A DNA stretch of 64,000 bases from Rhizodiscina lignyota. Its lineage: Eukaryota. Positions 17,316 through 56,190 of the stretch are shown here, piece after piece. The notes under the pieces are model-generated. The model did no database searches, was not told where the DNA came from, and saw only the letters and a list, made by a program, of their open reading frames with translations. The position numbers and the translations under genes were made by a program. Position 1 is the first letter of the stretch. Each line of letters begins with the position of its first letter. Where the stretch lies: NCBI GenBank assembly GCA_010015805.1, contig ML978129.1:1240001-1304000 (forward strand), in the 5' to 3' direction.

Positions 17316-19970
17316 ATGGCTTCTATTTTCACATTCGATCCTGATCCACCACGAGTTGCGTCTCCATGGTCGACTCCTGGAACGTCGACGCCAGAGCAAG
17401 GTGGTGGCCGCGCCACGAACGACTTGCCGCGAGGAGACAGACTTGCTCGTGGCTCGCCGCTGGGCAGGATACAGAGCCCTCCGGACTTTTCACTCACGAA
17501 GCTGGACGCTGAGCCCCAGGAAGGACCGACAGAGTACAAGCTGCACCTCCTACTTCGTCCTCGAAGGTCCTTTACTTCAACGACTACTGCAAATCGTATA
17601 TCCGGTTCATCAAACCGCTCCAGCTCCTTTGGAGAAGCGCACAGGAAATCATCAGGTTTGAGACTCTCGAGTACTCCTCCCCTGGCATCTTCTAGCCAGA
17701 GCCGTCAGCATCGTCTAGAGCAGCTCACAACTCAACTTCTCTGGCGACTGCAACAGTCCTCACCATATCAAGTCTCTGCCTCCAACAATCTCATCTTACC
17801 CGCCTTTCCTCAGATTGTCGGCGGTGTCGGCGTATCCCAGCATGTTGGACGCGTACTGCCCGGCTTAGAGGAGAGCAAAGGAGCCTTGTACGAGCTTGGG
17901 GTCGCAGACGATGGAACTTTCGTCGGCCTTGCGCAAGATGAGCTTGACGAGAGCTTGCACAACCTTCGTGCTATGGCGGCCACTCTGGGCTGCAGCATCG
18001 AGTTACTGAGAAAGGTGCCTGTCGGGGAATGTGAATGGTTCGAAGACGTTGGTTCTGTTACGAAGCTCTCCAGCATGCTGCGCAAAGGCACGCTCTGGGT
18101 AGCTGAAGCCTTCGTAAAGCCGAACCTAGGAGGGGCTTCGATTAACTCAACTGGCTCAACTGTCATGCACACAGCCTCAGACGACAAAGCGCAGCTAGAG
18201 AAATCTCCCTTCAAGGATATTGATCAATCTTCCACCGAACAACTCCGCATCACTCTCACTGGAGCAACGATGTCTGGAAAATCTAGTCTGCTAGGGAGTC
18301 TATCAAATGCTACTCTTGACAATGGTCGGGGAAAGAGCCGACTTAGCTTACTCAAACATCGCCATGAGATTGCATCTGGCATGACTAGTTCGGTCACGCA
18401 GGAGCTGTTAGGTTACTGCAAGGGTGAGCCATTGGGCAGCAGTCCCTCTCCTATCAGAATTGTCAATTCCGCAAGTGCAGATGTTGCGTCTTGGTTTGAC
18501 ATCCACTCATTGTGCGAGGGAGGCCGACTTGTCTTTTTCTCAGATTCGGCAGGCCACCCTCGCTATCGTCGCACGACGGTGCGTGGCTTGGTCGGATGGG
18601 CACCTCATTGGACCTTGCTTTGTGTTCCCGCAGACAATGCAGAGGATACTTCAGGGATGAGTGGCAGTACCCCACCTCTGAAGGATTTGCTTGGATGCGG
18701 CACAGCAGACGTGGACCTCTCCGAAGCCCACCTTCGAATATGCCTTGATCTAGACTTACCACTCGTCATAGCCATAACGAAGCTCGATTTGGCATCGAAA
18801 TACGGGCTTCGCCAGCTCCTCGCCAAACTATTGACCACGCTGAAGGCTGTCGGCAGAAAACCCGTCATTGTACCTGACAGTCCAGGCCCATCCGTGGATT
18901 CCGAGTCTCTGCTGATTGACACGGATGATCTTCTTGCAGTGCAGAAAGTATTTTCTCCACCAGCAACTGGTCACCAGGTCGTGCCGATCGTCTTAACCAG
19001 CGCTGTAAGTGGGACCGGAATTGGCAAGCTACATGCGCTTCTTTCCCAATTGCCGATCCCCCTGCCGCCTTTGCGCCCGTCAGCAACGTCTGCAGCTGCT
19101 GGCATTCCATCGGGACCTCTTTTTCATGTTGAAGACATTTACGGCGATAAGTCTAACACGGGTAATGAAGAAGCGTTGATCGTTGTCAGCGGTTATCTGC
19201 GATATGGCGAAATTCGTATCGGTGATGAGATGACTATTGGCCCATATGCGTCAGGGCCGTTCCCCGAGGACATTGAGAGCAGCCCGAACCTTCGTCCAAG
19301 AGACATGTTCCCCACATCTCGGTCATTCCCGGGAGCGATGTCCAATACCACACCACTAGAGGTTCATCACTCAACAAAAGCAGAGGAGTGGAGACGTGTC
19401 AAGGTTCGCAGTTTGCGCAATCTGCGTCTTCCAGTCCATTCACTGCACGCTGACCAGGTCGGAACGATTGGCATCCAAGCCCTCTCCACTCAGATTTCCT
19501 CCCCTGCTCTAAACAGAGTGCGGAAAGGCATGGTCCTCACAAGCAGCACACCAGCATCAAGCAGATCCGTAGAAGCACAATTCACAGGTTTGGGCATCCG
19601 CACCTTGACCGTTGGGTCCATGGTAGTGGCATACTTCGCTAGTGTTCGAGCTACGGCGAAAGTTATCTACATGGCCGTTGGCGATGATCCTATTGAAGCT
19701 GACGACGCAGATGAGGATGCCTTCCAGTTTGATTTTGGCAGTGGTGACGAGGGACTGGAGGCGGAGATTCAAACGCCGATTAACCCAAATGTGACGACCA
19801 TTGTGAGGTTCAGATTCATGGCGTCTCGTGAATTCGTAGAGCCAGGCAGGCAAATCCTCATTTTGCCCGGTGGTGGGCCTGGTTTGTCTGGTGGAAATGT
19901 TAGAGGTGAGAAGGGGCTTGCTGGACTGGATGGCTTCGTTGGCAAAGTGCTACAAGGACTTAGCGAATAG
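17316..19970 (+). CDS. Translational GTPase superfamily protein (GTPBP1/GTPBP2-like)
   Basis: N-terminal EYKLHL..QLLWRL..GALYELGVADDG; G1 GATMSGKSS, G2 HEIASGMTS, G3 DSAGH, G4 TKLD, G5 SAVSG; beta-barrel domains follow. Confidence 0.85.
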   Translation: MASIFTFDPDPPRVASPWSTPGTSTPEQGGGRATNDLPRGDRLARGSPLGRIQSPPDFSLTKLDAEPQEGPTEYKLHLLLRPRRSFTSTTTANRISGSSNRSSSFGEAHRKSSGLRLSSTPPLASSSQSRQHRLEQLTTQLLWRLQQSSPYQVSASNNLILPAFPQIVGGVGVSQHVGRVLPGLEESKGALYELGVADDGTFVGLAQDELDESLHNLRAMAATLGCSIELLRKVPVGECEWFEDVGSVTKLSSMLRKGTLWVAEAFVKPNLGGASINSTGSTVMHTASDDKAQLEKSPFKDIDQSSTEQLRITLTGATMSGKSSLLGSLSNATLDNGRGKSRLSLLKHRHEIASGMTSSVTQELLGYCKGEPLGSSPSPIRIVNSASADVASWFDIHSLCEGGRLVFFSDSAGHPRYRRTTVRGLVGWAPHWTLLCVPADNAEDTSGMSGSTPPLKDLLGCGTADVDLSEAHLRICLDLDLPLVIAITKLDLASKYGLRQLLAKLLTTLKAVGRKPVIVPDSPGPSVDSESLLIDTDDLLAVQKVFSPPATGHQVVPIVLTSAVSGTGIGKLHALLSQLPIPLPPLRPSATSAAAGIPSGPLFHVEDIYGDKSNTGNEEALIVVSGYLRYGEIRIGDEMTIGPYASGPFPEDIESSPNLRPRDMFPTSRSFPGAMSNTTPLEVHHSTKAEEWRRVKVRSLRNLRLPVHSLHADQVGTIGIQALSTQISSPALNRVRKGMVLTSSTPASSRSVEAQFTGLGIRTLTVGSMVVAYFASVRATAKVIYMAVGDDPIEADDADEDAFQFDFGSGDEGLEAEIQTPINPNVTTIVRFRFMASREFVEPGRQILILPGGGPGLSGGNVRGEKGLAGLDGFVGKVLQGLSE

Positions 19971-48107: not shown

Positions 48108-49001
48108 TCAAGAATCGCCATCTTCTTGCAGCATACGCTCGCATTTCACCTTCAGCTCTTCGACACCGTCAATGCCTTTCCACCGTTCAAGCAGGGGCAC
48201 AATATCCTTGAATTCATTCTGTGCATCAGTTTTTCGACCCTCAGCAATGAAAGCCTCCATCCGCTGAGGAGTCCCCAGAACCCATCGGACCGTCTGTTTC
48301 TTGCTCTGATTACTGGCCTGCTCAGTAGAAGTTGATGTGGCTTGAGCACGGCCGGTGCGATCAATGAGTGAGTTGGATAGAGTCGAAGCTGTATACGCTA
48401 TGTGTGATATTGCAGGGGATAATGTAGACGTTGCTGGCGTCAAGGGATCCATGTTCGACCGCATCTACACTATGTGAGCATGGTATAACTCTAGGTCGAA
48501 TGGAAGAGAGCTGTACCTTTCGGATCGTGTCGGTTGCAGCGATGAGCTTCGAGTAGTTATCATACACCAGAGCTTTCCTCTCGCCATCCAGATTCTTGAT
48601 TTCTATTACCCAGGTTGTCAGCATCCTCATTCTCTTCCGAATAGAATTACCATGGTGGTATCCCTATGCATACCGCTAATCAAATCACCCTCAACTTTCA
48701 GTACACCTTCTAGCCCTTCCTTTGCAAGAACATCCTTCACATACGCCGCAGCGTCAAATCCATTTCGGTCGAGCTCGCTGACCGGGCCTATGTCCTTGTG
48801 TACTGGCTCTGATGGTGGCACATTAGGTGCCTCTCCATCAACTACAGTGGCCTTGAGCCCGTAGTAATCTCGAAGTGCAGCTCGATTGCGACGTTGGTTC
48901 TGAGGTCTCGTGGCTTGTGATTGTGGAAGCTCGAGTGAGGTTCGTGATGAGGATGGGCTGCGGAGAGAGCTCGATTGTCGAGGAGATGCGATAGTCGACA
49001 T
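48108..49001 (-). CDS. VPS51: GARP complex subunit Vps51-like
   Basis: RRNRAALRDYYGL, LD...FD...YV, EIKNLDGERKALVYDNYSKLIAATDTIRK|MRSNMDPL; two introns. Confidence 0.88.
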
Positions 49002-49119
49002 TGGCGTAGCGATTTGACGGGCCAGAGAAGGATCCTGTACTCTGGCAGAGATTGAGATGATGAAGTGGTGTAGTAATAGCAGGTTTAGAAGAGAGAGACG
49101 TTACATACATGCTTGGTAT

Positions 49120-49177
49120 ACCCTAACCCTAACACGGGCTACGCGACGTTCATCACCAGATCTTTTTCACTACGCGT
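49120..49177. promoter_or_regulatory. Compact bidirectional promoter (VPS51/RMI1) with telomere-repeat box and MCB elements
   Basis: ACCCTAACCCTAAC at 49120-49133, ACGCGA 49141-49146, ACGCGT 49172-49177. Confidence 0.5.
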
Positions 49178-49251
49178 CTGCTTCTCTAAAGGAGAGTATC
49201 CGAATTAATGGGCCGCAAAATGTGAGAACTCGATCTGAGTTATCCATAATT

Positions 49252-49938
49252 ATGGCCCCAGGAGGCTCGGTTGCACAAGAAATTTCCGCTCATCTCGCAA
49301 CCAAATATCTCCAACCAACAACAGCATGGCTTCACAATTTCGTATCCAGTGACCGCCCGTCAATGCCTTTGGCAGCATTGAAGCAAACAGCACTATTTCG
49401 AATTCTGGCATCCGACATTCGTCAAACACTACAAGCTTCTCCAGAATCGGTATTTCCGCCAGACGTCCTCAACGCCAACATCAAAGAGCGTGAACTCGGT
49501 GGGCCAATCGTAGTTCAAGTCCTGCATATCGAAGACATTGGCAAATCACGATGGAGCCAGGTGGAAGAGCTTGAGGCTGCTGAGAGAGGCGAAACTACGA
49601 AGGGGAGGGAGATCATTAGAGTTACGCCTGCGGACGATGGGACGAGCGCCACAGAGACTCCAAAGAGCGCAGGGCCGCATAAATTGACACTGCAAGATGT
49701 CAAAGGCACCGCCGTCTTTGCCGTTGAGTTGAGCAGTGTTACCGGCCTTGATGTGGGAATGAACATGGGCACAAAACTGGTGTTGAAGGATATCACATTT
49801 GCAAGGGGTGTGGCGTTGCTTGAGCCGAAGTGCACTCAGATTCTTGGAGGCAAGATTGATGCTCTTCATAAGGCGTGGAAGGATGGGAGAAAAGAGTCAT
49901 TGAAAAAAGCTGCTGGTGCGGGCGAGCAAAATCAATGA
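49252..49938 (+). CDS. RMI1: RecQ-mediated genome instability protein 1 (OB-fold)
   Basis: TALFRILASDI, GPIVVQVLHIEDIG.S, GPHKLTLQD..G..V.A.E, GTKL.L...ARGV.LL.P....LGG.I..L. Confidence 0.85.
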   Translation: MAPGGSVAQEISAHLATKYLQPTTAWLHNFVSSDRPSMPLAALKQTALFRILASDIRQTLQASPESVFPPDVLNANIKERELGGPIVVQVLHIEDIGKSRWSQVEELEAAERGETTKGREIIRVTPADDGTSATETPKSAGPHKLTLQDVKGTAVFAVELSSVTGLDVGMNMGTKLVLKDITFARGVALLEPKCTQILGGKIDALHKAWKDGRKESLKKAAGAGEQNQ

Positions 49939-50053
49939 TGGATTGCTTTTAATGGATCGCTTGAGCGACACGACGTCACAGCCTTGGAGCAGCTGCGTAT
50001 CTTCCAGCAATGTGCGAGGACGTCGATTGCCTGCTGACTTCTCGATCGTCTTG

Positions 50054-51061
50054 CTAAAACTTTTCCAAGGCAGGCCTCATATCCAACTCATGCGTCCACA
50101 GACATGGCTCTTGTCCGTGGAGGAACAAGTATGTCTTGCCCACCGCCTCGGCGCTCATTTGCTTTCCGATTTTCTGCGCTTCACCATTCTCATCTCTGAT
50201 CGGACCATTGGCGATGGTATGCGCTACATGAATACCTTTCTCGCTCATCTCACGAGCAAGAGTCTGAGCAAGTTGTCGAACGCTGGCGCGCCCAGCGCCA
50301 TATGCGGCATATTGAGCGCTGCAGCGGAGGGCACCGAGAGTTCCAGTGAAGATGAGCGTCTGACGATCTTAGTCGATGGCATTGTCATGGCTAGGCAAGG
50401 AGCGGCTGATGGCATTTGAAATGCCATGAGAGCGCTCTGGATAAGAGAACCAAAACTTACCCCTTTCTTTTCCGCTCCTTCGGCCAAGGGAGTCTCCCCA
50501 TGATCAACAAAGAATCGTTTCAGAGACTCCTGAGCGAAGACGAAAGCTCCGCCAACATACGTTTCAAGCGATTGCGTAAAATCCTTCGAGAGTAAGTCAG
50601 AACCTCATTTGTACGCAGATGAATGAGAATGCATTGTACCAACATACCTCGAAGGTCTCTTCCATGAACGGCTTTTTACTGCTATGCTTGACGCTGAAGA
50701 TCGCCATACGGAGTTTGAGACCCTTTAGTCGCTCATGCTGCTTGATGGCTTCGAACGTCTTTGCCAGCGAAGCTGGGGATGTGTCTGTAGGGAATGTCTC
50801 GAACGTTGCACCAGGAACAGACGATTCCAACGACTGTTTGAGCTGCTTAAGCGGCTCTTCGCGTCTCGCAAGTAGCGCCACGGCAAAGTTGCCGTGAGAT
50901 GGATGAGCTAGGATGCGTGCTATTCCAGCACCCTACGAGAGGAGTTACGGACCAATTCATGTACATACAATTTCGCAAGTTCATCAAGTGTATGCAAGAT
51001 AGGTATCACTTACAGTCGATGGTCCAGCTCCTATGAGAATTGCTAAACCTGTGGGAGCCAT
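50054..51061 (-). CDS. Short-chain dehydrogenase/reductase (atypical, YxxxR)
   Basis: ILIGAGPST|GAGIAR Rossmann motif, VALLARR, GTLIFTGTLGALR..YAAYGAGRASVRQLAQTLAREMSEKGIHVAH; three introns. Confidence 0.85.
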
Positions 51062-51824
51062 GACAAGTGATTTCCTCTATGTAGAGTCTTAGAATGATCG
51101 ATTGAAACTTTCGAAAGTGGGAATATCATCATAGAGCCGGTTCAAGGGTTAGGGTTGCGTTGGTTACCTACTTAACTCCGGTAATCCCCCCCGAGGTCAA
51201 CCCACTCGGCTGTGAGATTGTATTGTGTACAAACCCGAGCTCAGGTTGACGAGGCTTCTGCTCCAAGTTCAACCATAGTTACGCAACAGTTTAATAGAGA
51301 AAGGCCCTTCTTCGACAACAGCAGCACCATACATTGCACATACGTGCATGTTGCAGTACAGCCTTCATCCAGAAAAGTGCACAAGGTCCGAGGTTCCATT
51401 GCTGAGGGTTTATAGCTTCCGCTGACTCAAGGGGCGCTGCTCTCAGATCCTGTTTCTTTGGCTGTTGCCCTTCTTCTATCTCGTGAAACTTCTGCGTGAA
51501 GTTGGATCATTCAAACCGTTGCTCTTCTTTCATGAAAGCGAGACTGTATGCAAGATATGCCGACTGTCTTGTGCTTGAGTTAAGAAGGCCCCCTATTCCT
51601 GGAACCAGACGGGTGCTCATACAAGTGGGTGCATGACCGCCTGTGACGATGGGTGCGGAGATACCCATTGGTACGGGCACATAGGTACCTGGAATTGGGT
51701 GCTCTGTCGACACAAGGTTCGAATCATCATCTGTATTCACCTTGTTCGACGCAAAACACATGTGGAATGGGCACGGTATTGTATAGAGAAGAAGATGTAT
51801 TCAAGACTATCTAATTTACATACT

Positions 51825-51898
51825 GAGTTCGTCTTGGTTTCACCCCGAAGGGCTACTCACACCGGACAGCACGTGAAGCTGCGAACTCGTCGTCCGGC
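51825..51898 (-). ncRNA. HDV-like (CPEB3-type) self-cleaving ribozyme
   Basis: Minus-strand RNA GCCGGAC GAC GAGUUCGC AGC UUCACGU GCU GUCCGGU GU G AGUA GCCC UUCG GGGU GAA ACCAA GA CGAACUC. It gives a 7-bp P1 with G1.U wobble, an 8-bp P2 with one bulged A, a 3-bp P3, L3 UUCACGU, a single-pair P1.1, P4 with UUCG loop, and J4/2 A-C-C-A-A with putative catalytic C at 51837. Confidence 0.88.
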
Positions 51899-52447
51899 AT
51901 GCAGAGGGTTGATAGAGGGACCGTACCAGCCGGTGTGCATACCAACCCTCCGCACCTAGCGTATTTCAGGGAGCGGTCAGGGCTAAAGCCGAGCAGACGT
52001 GCACCTTACTTACTAGCAAAAAAACAAAAACGCCAGCGCCATGCAGAGGATTGACAGAGGGACCGTACCAGCCGGTGTCATGCCAAACCTTCCGCATCTA
52101 GCGTATTTCAGGGAGCGGTCAGGGCTAAAGCCGAGCAGACGTCACCTTACTTACTAGCTTGACGCGACACCAAACGCCAAAAGCAAGAAAGCAAAAACTC
52201 CAAAACACCAAAACACCAAACGCCAGAAAGCAAGAAAGCAAAAACTCCAAAACGCCAAAATGCCAAAACACCAAACGCCAAAAAGCAAGAAAGCAAGAAA
52301 GCAAAAACGCCAAAACGCCAGCGCCATGCAGAGGAAAGGCAGAGGGAAACCGTAAAAGCCGGTGTGCATGCCAAACCTTCCACATCCAACGCTTTTCAGG
52401 GAGCGGTCAGGGCGAAAGCCGAGCAGACGTGCACCTTACTTGCTGGC
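51898..52447 (-). repeat. Three imperfect tandem copies of a ~120-nt double-hairpin unit (51898-52017, 52040-52158, 52325-52447)
   Basis: Shared core TTCAGGGAGCGGTCAGGGC(T/G)AAAGCCGAGCAGACGT and CATGCAGAGG ends on the + strand; G.U pairs indicate the minus strand is the folded RNA. Confidence 0.92.
52159..52324. repeat. Low-complexity spacer of irregular 7-9 nt modules (AAAGCAAG, CAAAACGC, CAAAACAC, AAAAACTC)
   Basis: Directly visible; almost no T on + strand. Confidence 0.9.
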
Positions 52448-52469
52448 GTGCGCAACACCCAAAAGAAAG

Positions 52470-52748
52470 TCAGTACTCACCTCGAAAGTCGATCACGTCG
52501 ACAGCCTTGTGGCCGCCAGTGACCCTCCTCAACCTCGCCGGAATCGAGTCGTCCGGCATCACCCCCTGCTGCTCGCCGATGTGGCGGTAGATCGCCGCCG
52601 CCGTCTCGGTGTCGAATTTGGTGTCGTAGTGCTGTCGGAGCCACCCCTTCCGTTCTCGCTCCATCGCCCACGCGTCGTGGGCCTTTCGTGCTCGGCGTCG
52701 GTCGGCGCGCTTGGCGAGCCACAGGCGGAAACGTCTGATGACGTTCAT
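52470..52748 (-). CDS. Orphan 92-aa Arg/Trp-rich basic protein (may instead splice at GTGAGT 52480)
   Basis: ATG in CAACATG context 126 nt below a TATA box; MNVIRRFRLWLAKRADRRRARKAHDAWAMERERKGWLRQHY...; G+C 160/240 by hand count over 52501-52740, visibly above the flanks. Confidence 0.6.
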   Translation of the reverse strand: MNVIRRFRLWLAKRADRRRARKAHDAWAMERERKGWLRQHYDTKFDTETAAAIYRHIGEQQGVMPDDSIPARLRRVTGGHKAVDVIDFRGEY

Positions 52749-52829
52749 GTTGATTGTTATGATTGTTGAGTTTGATGGATGAAAAAAATGCTTGCAAGTC
52801 AACGAGTACGGTTGCTGCAAGTGAAGAGT

Positions 52830-52920
52830 TCTAGAGAAAAAGAAAGAGGGAGATGGGAGGGAGGGAAAGGCCCCTTTATAGTCGGGCGGGAGCAGGTCGC
52901 AACCACATGTAATCACATGT
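52830..52920 (-). promoter_or_regulatory. Pol II core promoter for the orphan ORF/ribozyme module
   Basis: TATAAAG at 52880-52874, followed by a CT-rich box (CCTTTCCCTCCCTCCCATCTCCCTCTTTCTTTTTCTC); upstream direct repeat CACATGT-aat-CACATGT (52904-52920). Confidence 0.6.
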
Positions 52921-53414
52921 ACGATTGCCTCCTCTCCCTTCTCTGATGACTTGCCTCTGTGTGATACGTCCCAACATGAATAATTGCGGGATTATAAAGT
53001 CGTTGGCCGCCAACACGGCTGTAACTCTCAACGGCTAATAGCTCTTCCACCTCACAGGAATCGAGACTACCTCTGAAAGTTCAATTGGATATTCTCTGGA
53101 GAGTATTAAACAACAGCAGGAGACAGAAAAACTTGTATCCTACGTTATCTATAGAGGCTGTACATAGGTGCTGGCCAGCAGTATTGGCAAAAGTCCATGT
53201 CCTTTCAAGACAGATCAGATCTGTTGAGTCCAAAACGGTGAACCTGCGGAGAATTGGACTGGACTGGACTGGTCGGACTTGATCGATCTTAACGGTGCTG
53301 CTTATTCAATCGAATTCGATAAAAGTTCGTTGGTATCAAGGCGTTGAGTTGCGGGATGTGAGCGATTTCCGGCAAGCGCACGAGACATGCAACGGCGTCC
53401 GTGTTCTGTGACAT

Positions 53415-53710
53415 CGAGAAGCAAATCTTCTAAGCCAGAGTGGACAAGCTACCCCCTGATAATCCCGAACACAAACTTATCGCAAGCGTATAAGGTATGT
53501 ACCGAGGTCTCTCTTCCACGACAACGAGAAGCGAATCTTCTGTGGTGGGCAAAGCAAGCTACTCCCCAGCAAATTCGAATGCAAACTCATCGCAAGCGTA
53601 TGATATTTGTAACGAGGTCTCTTTTCCATGATAACGAGAAGCGAATGTTCTAAGGCAGGTTGGCCAAGCTGCTCCCCAACCCCCTCGAATGCAACTTCAC
53701 AGACGCGAGA
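53415..53710. repeat. Degenerate 110-bp tandem repeat, ~2.7 copies
   Basis: CGAGAAGC(A/G)AAT(C/G)TTCT recurs at 53415, 53525 and 53635; CAAGCT recurs with the same period, and ATCGCAAGCGTAT and CGAGGTCTCT occur in copies 1 and 2. Confidence 0.85.
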
Positions 53711-54804
53711 AGAAGGATAATTGCAGCGTAGCAGAGTGGTCAGAATCAAGCCTCCAGTATGGAGAGGAACGGGAACGAGAAGAAAATGCCGCAGAAGAAC
53801 ACCCAACCACCGCAGAAGCATATGGAGAGTAGCATGTGCAAAGAATATGACAGCTTGTGAGGCGCAGGAGCATGAAAGGAATAACACTTGATGATAGTTC
53901 GGCGCAGGCAAGGCGTACATGTCCTTCTCCAAACATATCCCTTTTTGGTTGGCTTTTTACCTCCTGAGCGGCCGGGCGAAGCCTAGTGTCTACTGAGTGG
54001 CGACATACTCGGAGCACGTTGGACGAGGCAATTGTGCGGCCGAATACATTGGGAAGGATAGTCGAAGGAGAAGACAAGAAGTCGAGTTGGAGCGGGCGCA
54101 TTGACAAGGCCTCGCGTTTCCTAGGTCCGATCTGGTTTAGACCAACGGTTACCGTTCCTGCATGTGGCTGGATCCGCTGCAGGCACATGCACACTGTCAG
54201 ATTCACGTTCCTATGCACGGATGCTACCAAGACCGCATGTCACCAGCGAAGCAAAGGGAGCTTACTAGCCCGAGGATGCTGTTCGATATGTTGACTCAAT
54301 CTACCACGAATTGGTTGGGACTCCTAAGTACATGCAAAGGAGGCTGGAGGCGACGGATGGCTAAGAACTGACTGGATTGATCTTATCTGATCTGATAAAG
54401 GAGCTCCCCTGTCAAACGTGACACCGCGAGTAGATCGTGATTTCTGCGCGCGAAAATTCCGCGAAAGTCCAACGCAAAACGTATTAACGGGAATCATTAT
54501 AAACTATTCAGATCTAAATACTACTAACTCTGTCTTCTTTCCCGGCTCTGCGAAGAATGATGCGCGGAAAATTAATTCTGTTTCTAACATTGAAAGCGAT
54601 GGACTTTGGCGCTGCGCGGGTGGGAGGGCCAAGCTGACATAATCATCTTTTTCCTGCATGCGCCATCTTACATTATAGAAGGAGGCGCCGAAATTCTCAG
54701 CCTCATCCATCACGACGTTGAACTTTCAAGCTCGCCCGCATCTTGTCAATGATATTCTAGACTCTCGGGCAGGAGTATGATGCGAAGAAGGCTGCCTCTA
54801 AAGC

Positions 54805-56190
54805 ATGAATTGGGCGCGCAGAATTCCTCCTAGCTTTCGCCGTCCACGAGCTCTCCTCATCCTCATATGCTCGATAGCCTCCCTGCTCTACTTGCTGAAC
54901 CCACTGTCAGGTCTTGGAAAGCGTCGCTACGATATCTGGAGAGAAGACCCGTACATTCAACTGCTCGACGACTCGACGCGCCAAAGCAAGGATGCTGTAC
55001 CATCAGAAGCCCGCTGCAAAGGCTTTCCGCCGAGCGTATTCGACAAGATACAGGTGGTAGTGAAGATAGGAGCTCCAGAGGCGCGCACGAAGCTCACAAG
55101 ACAGTTGGCTACCAATACGGCCTGTGTCAAGGATCTGCTTATATTCTCGGACTTTGAGGAAGAGGTTCAAGGCTATCACATATATGACGCACTGGCGAAT
55201 TTGAAAGAGTCGGAGTGGGTGGACAATCCAGATTATGACGTCTACAAGCAGAACAAGGCGGCTAAGGATAACGGCGAGAGCCTTAGTCGCAGCAGCGAGG
55301 GATGGAAGCTTGACAAGTACAAGTTCCTGCCAATGATGGACATGACATGGGAAATGCGCTCGCAGAAAGACTGGTTCGTTTTCATCGAAGCGGACTCTTA
55401 CGTCTTCTGGGATAATCTCTTCCGCTGGTTGGGGCATCTCGATCCGGAGAAAGCGTTGTACATGGGCTCCCCAATTTGGCGGGTGACGCCTCCGGAGCCG
55501 ACTTTTGCACACGGTGGCAGCGGCATTGTAGTGTCTCGTGCTGGGCTGAAGAAATTGGTGCGACCGCGCGACTATAACTGCGATGTCGCTGGCTGCACTC
55601 AGTACGGGTTTGACTTTAGAGATAAATGCTGTGGAGACGCAGTACTCTCAGACGTCTTTGACGCACGGGGGATTTCTCTGAAGGGATACTGGCCCATGAT
55701 AAATGGTGAAAAGCCGGCCACTGTTCGCTATGGCAAAGACGAGCAATGGTGCGAGCCGATTATCATCATGCATCACGTGAACGAAACCGACCAAATGGAG
55801 CTTACTGACTGGGAGATTCGTCGGCCATCATCGAATCCTGTCATGTTTGAGGACCTCTGGAATTGGTTAGAGCACCTGATTCCTCCTTACCGCACAGACT
55901 GGTCCGTGTTGGCCGAAGGAGATGTTCTGAAGGCTGAAGATGGCCAAGCGGCAGCCGCATCACCTCAAGCTTGTGAACTTGGCTGCTTGGAGAAGAAGTG
56001 GTGCTACCAGTGGCAGCACATGAAGGGGGTTTGTGAGCATTCGCCGTGGATTCGTGTGGGAAGAGAACAGCTGCCTGACATGGATGGCAATACTTGCGTG
56101 TCCGGCACGATTATGAAACGTGTTGCGAATTTCAAGAAGCGCATGGGTCATTGCGAAGATGCACACTGGGTTAGGGCAAATCCCGGCTAA
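54805..56190 (+). CDS. Glycosyltransferase family 31 (Fringe-like), type II membrane protein with Cys-rich C-terminal domain
   Basis: N-terminal TM, LIFSD, GWKLDKYKFLPM, WFVFIEADSY (DxD-like), FAHGGSGIVVSR, CCGD.VL, WCEP.I.MHH. Confidence 0.9.
   Translation: MNWARRIPPSFRRPRALLILICSIASLLYLLNPLSGLGKRRYDIWREDPYIQLLDDSTRQSKDAVPSEARCKGFPPSVFDKIQVVVKIGAPEARTKLTRQLATNTACVKDLLIFSDFEEEVQGYHIYDALANLKESEWVDNPDYDVYKQNKAAKDNGESLSRSSEGWKLDKYKFLPMMDMTWEMRSQKDWFVFIEADSYVFWDNLFRWLGHLDPEKALYMGSPIWRVTPPEPTFAHGGSGIVVSRAGLKKLVRPRDYNCDVAGCTQYGFDFRDKCCGDAVLSDVFDARGISLKGYWPMINGEKPATVRYGKDEQWCEPIIIMHHVNETDQMELTDWEIRRPSSNPVMFEDLWNWLEHLIPPYRTDWSVLAEGDVLKAEDGQAAAASPQACELGCLEKKWCYQWQHMKGVCEHSPWIRVGREQLPDMDGNTCVSGTIMKRVANFKKRMGHCEDAHWVRANPG

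Follow-up and report, generated by a model that had tools for sequence, protein, structure and literature searches.

On the minus strand of the window (the whole 64-kb stretch of DNA analysed here), positions 51898-51825 carry a 74-nt candidate that is highly likely to be a genuine HDV-like self-cleaving ribozyme, of the loop-E-bearing variant described from fungi. Judged by comparison of sequences, it fits the fold of this class, and its unpaired letters belong to a large covarying RNA family. The ribozyme is complete, and its predicted cleavage is very probably active.

All helices described here are present in the sequence, and decay is visible in none of them. The predicted scissile bond joins U-1 (51899) to G+1 (51898) on the minus strand, which puts it at the base of P1, its usual place in this class. 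P1 itself consists of seven pairs between GCCGGAC (51898-51892) and GUCCGGU (51867-51861), drawn from the sequence and from covariation, and opens with the pair G51898.U51861. A J1/2 of three nucleotides, GAC (51891-51889), whose length varies across the alignments of relatives, leads into P2. The 5' strand of this helix (51888-51881) is made up of GAGUUCG (51888-51882) and C51881, and its 3' strand (51833-51825) of G51833, a bulged A51832 and CGAACUC (51831-51825), again on the evidence of sequence and covariation together. C51881 is the 'extra' nucleotide at the junction of P2 and P3, and pairs with G51833 across the bulged A51832. P3 (51880-51868) is the short helix AGC/GCU, formed by 51880-51878 with 51870-51868, whose pairs covary, and it encloses the 7-nt L3 UUCACGU (51877-51871), the letters of which were fixed by the search pattern given below. 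The GU that follows P1 (51860-51859), whose letters the search pattern likewise fixed, is the putative P1.1: from the architecture of the CPEB3 and HDV ribozymes, G51860 would be expected to pair with C51875, with U51859 lying opposite U51876. P4 (51858-51838) combines a loop-E-like internal loop, a stem and a UUCG loop. The internal loop sets GAGUA (51858-51854) opposite GAAA (51841-51838), with AGUA at 51857-51854 facing GAA at 51841-51839; the stem has four pairs (51853-51850 with 51845-51842), for which there is both sequence and covariation evidence, and the UUCG closes it at 51849-51846. J4/2 reads CCAA (51837-51834), matching the class form C-N-R-A, and by homology C51837 would correspond to the catalytic cytosines C75 in HDV and C57 in CPEB3. 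The strands follow each other in the order of the class, P1-P2-P3-L3-P3'-P1'-P1.1-P4-J4/2-P2', and a cytosine at the start of J4/2 is found together with a G+1 that is paired with U or C, here U.

An RNA copy of this strand would be expected to fold as a nested double pseudoknot, with P1 and P2 outside, P3 and P1.1 inside, and P4 carrying its loop E, and to cut itself between U51899 and G51898. In analogy to known members of the class, the 2'-OH of U-1 would attack the adjacent phosphate, with a bound Mg2+ and C51837 of J4/2 as the catalytic groups, and the products would be an upstream RNA ending in a 2',3'-cyclic phosphate and a downstream RNA beginning with a 5'-OH. The base at -1 (51899) is read from the sequence as U, which is reported as the most favourable one at this position for the genomic HDV ribozyme (PMC1874588).

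Variants of this kind have been reported from fungi, as the earlier note correctly stated. Li & Breaker (2017, BMC Genomics 18:785, PMC5640933) list 230 HDV ribozyme variants from 26 fungal species, with Ajellomyces, Arthroderma and Aspergillus among those in their Table S1, and describe exactly such a variant, which departs from the general consensus in three respects: the pair at the cleavage site is typically C-G, P4 includes a loop E, and one additional nucleotide, in most cases C, separates P2 from P3. For P. chrysogenum and A. niger, bimolecular constructs were found to cleave at the base of P1, and the products of the A. niger construct, as determined by mass spectrometry, fit a 2',3'-cyclic phosphate and a 5'-OH (PMC5640933); four A. 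nidulans variants were later confirmed biochemically in a 2026 preprint, which also reports that HDV-like ends are poorly captured by ligation-based sequencing. In the candidate, a loop E of the form AGUA/GAA partly replaces P4, and C51881 is the additional C at the junction of P2 and P3. Since these are the published marks of the variant, the candidate is best placed with the fungal variants and not taken for an orthologue of CPEB3. The nested double pseudoknot and the cut at the base of P1 are likewise held in common, as are variable and non-obvious gene neighbourhoods, for which the 2017 paper uses the words "widely variable gene associations". A difference lies in the first P1 pair, which is typically C-G in the fungal variants and G.U in the candidate, the paper wording C-G as typical and not as required. 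In addition, the nucleotide regarded as 'inserted' between P2 and P3 of the fungal variants is paired in the candidate's alignments, with the base that follows J4/2, after which comes a 1-nt bulge.

The fold on its own does not set the candidate apart from chance. Our own HDV descriptor called for a P1 of 7 bp starting with G, a P3 of 3 bp, an L3 of 7-8 nt containing a C that could form P1.1, a G after P1, a J4/2 matching CNRA, a P2 of 7 bp or more in which a single bulge was tolerated, and any 4-bp hairpin as P4; loosened post hoc to admit the bulged P2, which it had missed at the first try, it matched the candidate alone in the 64-kb window. In 172 dinucleotide-shuffled windows, the same descriptor found 135 sites (about 0.8 per window), with at least one site in 96 of them, and by this measure alone the candidate is not significant. 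In minimum free energy, the 74 nt fold no more stably than shuffles do (z +0.89), a nested-only energy being uninformative for a pseudoknot. In Rfam 15, HDV-type families were unmatched over the whole window at gathering score, and RF00094, RF00622, RF02682 and the drz families were unmatched over 51700-52000 with E up to 10, a miss that says little. Together, the shuffled-window count, the fold energy and the Rfam result are what could be brought forward for a chance look-alike, i.e. ordinary intergenic DNA that happens to meet the HDV pairing scheme. We nevertheless regard such a coincidence as highly improbable, on the strength of the comparison with relatives.

For this comparison, metagenomes were searched with a pattern made of unpaired letters only: L3, ten free letters, GU followed by GAGUA, then a spacer of 8-24, and GAAAC. 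The candidate supplied the 19 fixed letters of this pattern, and the helices were absent from it. At least 118 metagenome stretches matched. The helix test was restricted to the 109 listed matches that offered 46 nt or more upstream and 16 nt or more downstream, and 67 of these 109 show, correctly spaced, P1 with 7/7 pairs, P3 with 3/3 and P2 with 5 bp or more, built from many different helix sequences. When 45 nt upstream and 13 nt downstream were shuffled, the mean number passing over 200 replicates was 0.0, so that the helices arose in none of the 200 x 109 shuffled flanks. A G at +1 is found in all 67 passing relatives among the matches listed. P4, for which the matches were not selected, has all four pairs in 90 of the 109. 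Some of the 42 listed matches that failed are near-misses with a single broken P1 pair; the remaining ones are false matches inside bacterial or phage coding genes (for a histidine kinase, a PAS-domain protein, a phage capsid protein, an AAA ATPase, DNA polymerase A, a peptidase, ribosomal protein L11 and a baseplate protein), and constitute an internal negative control. Among the contigs that carry the core of CPEB3-like L3 and loop-E P4 are one TARA scaffold and one record titled human gut metagenome, and the genes flanking the core are varied.

Two alignments were made from the passing relatives, both with rows pre-selected for complete P1 and P3 helices and for 5 bp or more in P2; P4 and the count of 67/109 against shuffles are the unselected measures. 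In the first (A2), of 36 non-redundant passing relatives among the matches listed, 99.4% of the cells of these pre-selected rows are paired, compared to 59.2% in the shuffled control and 38-49% with the pairing partner displaced by one to three columns, and the covariation score is 1.061 versus 0.234. The second (A3) comprises the window and 21 non-redundant relatives with the same bulged P2 (22 rows, pre-selected in the same way); all 20 of its 20 pairs are 100% paired, and two-sided changes occur in 19 of them, including all six P2 pairs. In rows selected for P1, the seven pairs of this helix are 100% paired in both alignments, with two-sided changes in six of the seven. The four stem pairs of the unselected P4 are 98.6-100% paired in the two alignments, every one of them with two-sided changes. 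The first pair of P1 is GU in 27 and GC in 9 of the 36 relatives.

P2 takes two main forms in the 69 passers counted for this helix among the matches listed. In 38 it is continuous, the helix beginning directly after J4/2 without a bulge; in 30 it is of the candidate's type, in which a single pair and a 1-nt bulge, usually A, come before the helix. The pair C51881-G51833, which in the second alignment (22 rows, columns 18/78/79) is represented by CG in 8 rows, GC in 8, AU in 4 and UA in 2, covaries, and none of the 82 unique cores listed has the helix at the +2 offset but lacks the equivalent of this pair. P2 with its bulged A, as drawn in the earlier note, is therefore supported, and the support includes the covarying C51881-G51833 pair. 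More generally, all pairings proposed in that note are present on the minus strand at the coordinates it had assigned to them; its nested double-pseudoknot fold is borne out by covariation among the relatives, which also speaks for its placement of the cut between 51899 and 51898 and for its loop E in P4.

A covariance model (R1) was built from the 36 relatives without the window, with a short calibration. It matches the candidate over 51898-51826 at 62.5 bits (E 7.6e-13), a score that is in part a matter of construction because the 19 fixed letters of the search pattern originate from the candidate. Its only other match in the 64 kb, at 18781-18863 on the minus strand (7.9 bits, E 3.3), was taken as noise. 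A chance origin is also at odds with the unpaired letters, which are exactly those of the covarying family, and with the presence of both published marks of the variant, loop E and the extra C (PMC5640933). Compared with its relatives, the candidate thus lies far beyond chance, in contrast to its standing by the fold descriptor alone. The metagenome matches show the core of CPEB3-like L3 and loop-E P4 to be common in environmental DNA, which suggests that the range of the variant extends past the fungal species listed in the literature.

HDV ribozymes have an L3 of 8 nt and a P1.1 of two pairs. With their genomic and antigenomic forms (RF00094) the candidate has in common the fold, the expected cleavage chemistry and the catalytic cytosine of J4/2; they differ in being without loop E and in serving as viral rolling-circle processing elements, and not as chromosomal ones. 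The likeness to the mammalian CPEB3 ribozyme (RF00622) concerns the core. For this ribozyme, PMC4836649 names U20, U21, C22, A23, G25, U26, G37, U38 and C57, and describes a P1.1 of one G-C and one U-U as well as a J4/2 of 4 nt containing C57. Six of the seven L3 letters of the candidate match the named U20 U21 C22 A23. G25 U26, and the predicted P1.1 of one G-C and a U-U, the 4-nt J4/2 opening with the presumed catalytic C, and the G.U at the cut are also shared (PMC4836649). The resemblance in L3 and P1.1 to which the earlier note had drawn attention is thus well founded, and could be read as a sign that the candidate is a member or an orthologue of the CPEB3 family proper. Such membership is, however, hardly credible. 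The Rfam CPEB3 model (RF00622) is unmatched with E up to 10, and since it is unmatched, the likeness is one of a common core and not of membership. The same conclusion follows from L3 itself: because the same loop is found in dozens of unrelated metagenome members, it indicates a common core and is no sign of orthology. CPEB3 lies in a conserved mammalian intron, whereas the candidate has a fungal intergenic setting with SDR, RMI1 and Fringe-like neighbours of fungal type. Moreover, the candidate has a short P4 with loop E and a bulged A in P2, neither of which is described for CPEB3 in PMC4836649.

The host looks fungal by the gene content of the window, in which Pfam recognises DNA ligase I, RMI1, a Fringe-like protein, an ammonium transporter and SDRs, and in which introns of a GTAAGT...CTAAC-like type are visible. 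The ribozyme sits in about 3.7 kb without recognisable genes, flanked on one side by an SDR (short-chain dehydrogenase) gene and on the other by the Fringe-like gene. The SDR gene (51061-50054, by Pfam) lies on the ribozyme's own minus strand; its ATG is at 51061, and its first intron, 51013-50933, has the form GTAAGT ... CGTAAC ... TAG; the Fringe-like gene (also by Pfam) starts near 54802 on the opposite strand. Pfam found no family above threshold in the intergenic ORFs between 51062 and 54800, and no tRNA genes were found in 49000-55000. The SDR start codon is 764 nt downstream of the 3' end of the ribozyme on the same strand, a position that would also suit a structured element that does not cleave, such as a protein-binding pseudoknot or a part of the SDR promoter. 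An element of this sort we consider very unlikely: every residue required for catalysis in this class is present (G+1, the C of J4/2, and the U and G of L3), and tested members of the same variant do cleave (PMC5640933; 2026 preprint).

The DNA on the other side of the predicted cut is occupied by a hairpin array (52447-51899). It consists of three tandem units of about 125 nt on the minus strand (approx. 52447-52326, 52160-52041 and 52015-51899), with a mean column identity of 83%, set apart by GT/T-rich spacers that include a minisatellite (52167-52320); the ribozyme follows the third unit only. Each unit is closed by a hairpin, formed by its last 57 nt (52385-52326, 52097-52041 and 51955-51899, minus strand). 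The hairpin of copy C (51955-51899) has a folding energy of -30.9 kcal/mol (z -5.45), with 0 of 200 shuffles as good, compared to -23.3 kcal/mol (z -2.53, 4 of 200) for copy B and -18.1 kcal/mol (z -1.98, 7 of 200) for copy A. Its stem comprises 16 uninterrupted base pairs, the final paired base being U-1, directly at the predicted cut; by our own reading of the sequences, one U-A to C-G double change separates copy C from copies A and B. When co-folded with the ribozyme, the copy C hairpin remains intact and separate. A hairpin abutting the cut is not a trait of the family, being found in 5 of 41 members versus 24 of 164 shifted controls, and the units match no Rfam family, a search of 51890-52480 with E up to 5 giving only noise (snoR100, UCA1). 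In sequencing run X1, the one run found to contain the stretch and not recorded as RNA, the region 50500-51985 lies on a single contig of 99,783 nt with no differences, and extra contig pieces cover the local repeat only. Just upstream of the first unit, an ORF of 92 codons (52748-52473, minus strand) ends at a GTGAGT 5' splice-like site. It has no homologues of near length class, no usable match in the protein atlas and only a sub-threshold Pfam match to RyR (E 0.029), and is probably not a gene.

This arrangement suggests a role for the cut. A minus-strand transcript, the existence of which we infer, would run through the three upstream hairpin units and then through the ribozyme. Cleavage may then trim the transcript flush with the foot of the hairpin at 51955-51899, leaving a structured, non-polyadenylated 3' end, and would uncap the RNA that leads toward the SDR gene. 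We put this role forward tentatively, with chances somewhat short of even. A more specific proposal is that the ribozyme acts as the 3'-end maker of a tandem hairpin RNA, in which the three units would be co-transcribed and given a blunt cyclic-phosphate end without poly(A), the product being either a small-RNA precursor or a stable structured 3' end; in this specific form the proposal is unlikely.

The main rival to hairpin trimming comes from the settings of the metagenome relatives. The 16 closest ones among the matches listed (L002, L011, L023, L025, L026, L037, L065, L075, L076, L090, L104, L109, L112, L113, L114 and L118) have the same P1 as the candidate, to which they are 76-82% identical over 67-69 nt. 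These 16 are copies of a repeat, in which likeness sets in within 0 to 7 nt of the cut and extends for at least 360-660 nt downstream of it; the DNA upstream differs between copies. The repeat also holds internal repeats of about 130 nt, and in one case (L011) an ORF with DUF3723 lies upstream of the repeat copy on the opposite strand. Since the location of these relatives coincides exactly with the 5' boundary of a repeated element, a retroelement origin is indicated for them, and on this sequence evidence their ribozyme probably defines the 5' end of that element. Downstream of another member and oriented like it lies an ORF for an Exo_endo_phos / endonuclease-reverse-transcriptase protein (L074:3-860), as in a non-LTR retrotransposon. 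An ORF for a GIY-YIG nuclease (L079:57-425) comes after a further member. R2 and other elements are among the retrotransposons that have HDV-like ribozymes at their 5' ends. Such ribozymes are established for non-LTR retrotransposons, e.g. L1Tc (PMC3185411), and have in common with the closest relatives of the candidate that they mark the 5' boundary of a repeated element.

The candidate could accordingly be read as a relic, namely the 5' end of an old, decayed retroelement insertion, possibly a non-autonomous one, extending downstream from 51898; it might still cut, but would have no host function. Despite the precedent of the repeat copies, of the endonuclease-reverse-transcriptase ORF and of L1Tc, such an origin for the candidate itself seems rather doubtful. 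Nothing retroelement-like is seen downstream of it: Pfam detected no domain in the approx. 760 nt downstream of the ribozyme, and the flanks of the ribozyme in the window show no likeness to the listed metagenome loci, the likeness being in the ribozyme alone and not in the downstream DNA. No tandem or A-rich end was seen downstream, and no downstream copy was found of the 10 nt before the cut that would point to a target-site duplication. The downstream DNA is single copy in run X1, where 50500-51898 is covered by one contig only at a likeness of at least 80%, and the ribozyme helices, as noted above, are undecayed. The 5'-boundary feature of retrotransposon ribozymes is thus seen in the close metagenome relatives and is not seen in the candidate.

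With respect to the class, the ribozyme at 51898-51825 adds one well-supported example to a fungal variant that is already known and bench-tested, and the picture of the class is unchanged. The position of the predicted cut, directly at the base of a strong hairpin that belongs to a tandem array, offers a concrete and testable idea of a host function. Should the ribozyme indeed make the 3' end of a tandem hairpin RNA, this would assign to an HDV-like ribozyme of fungi a defined role in its host, a point left open in the 2017 paper.
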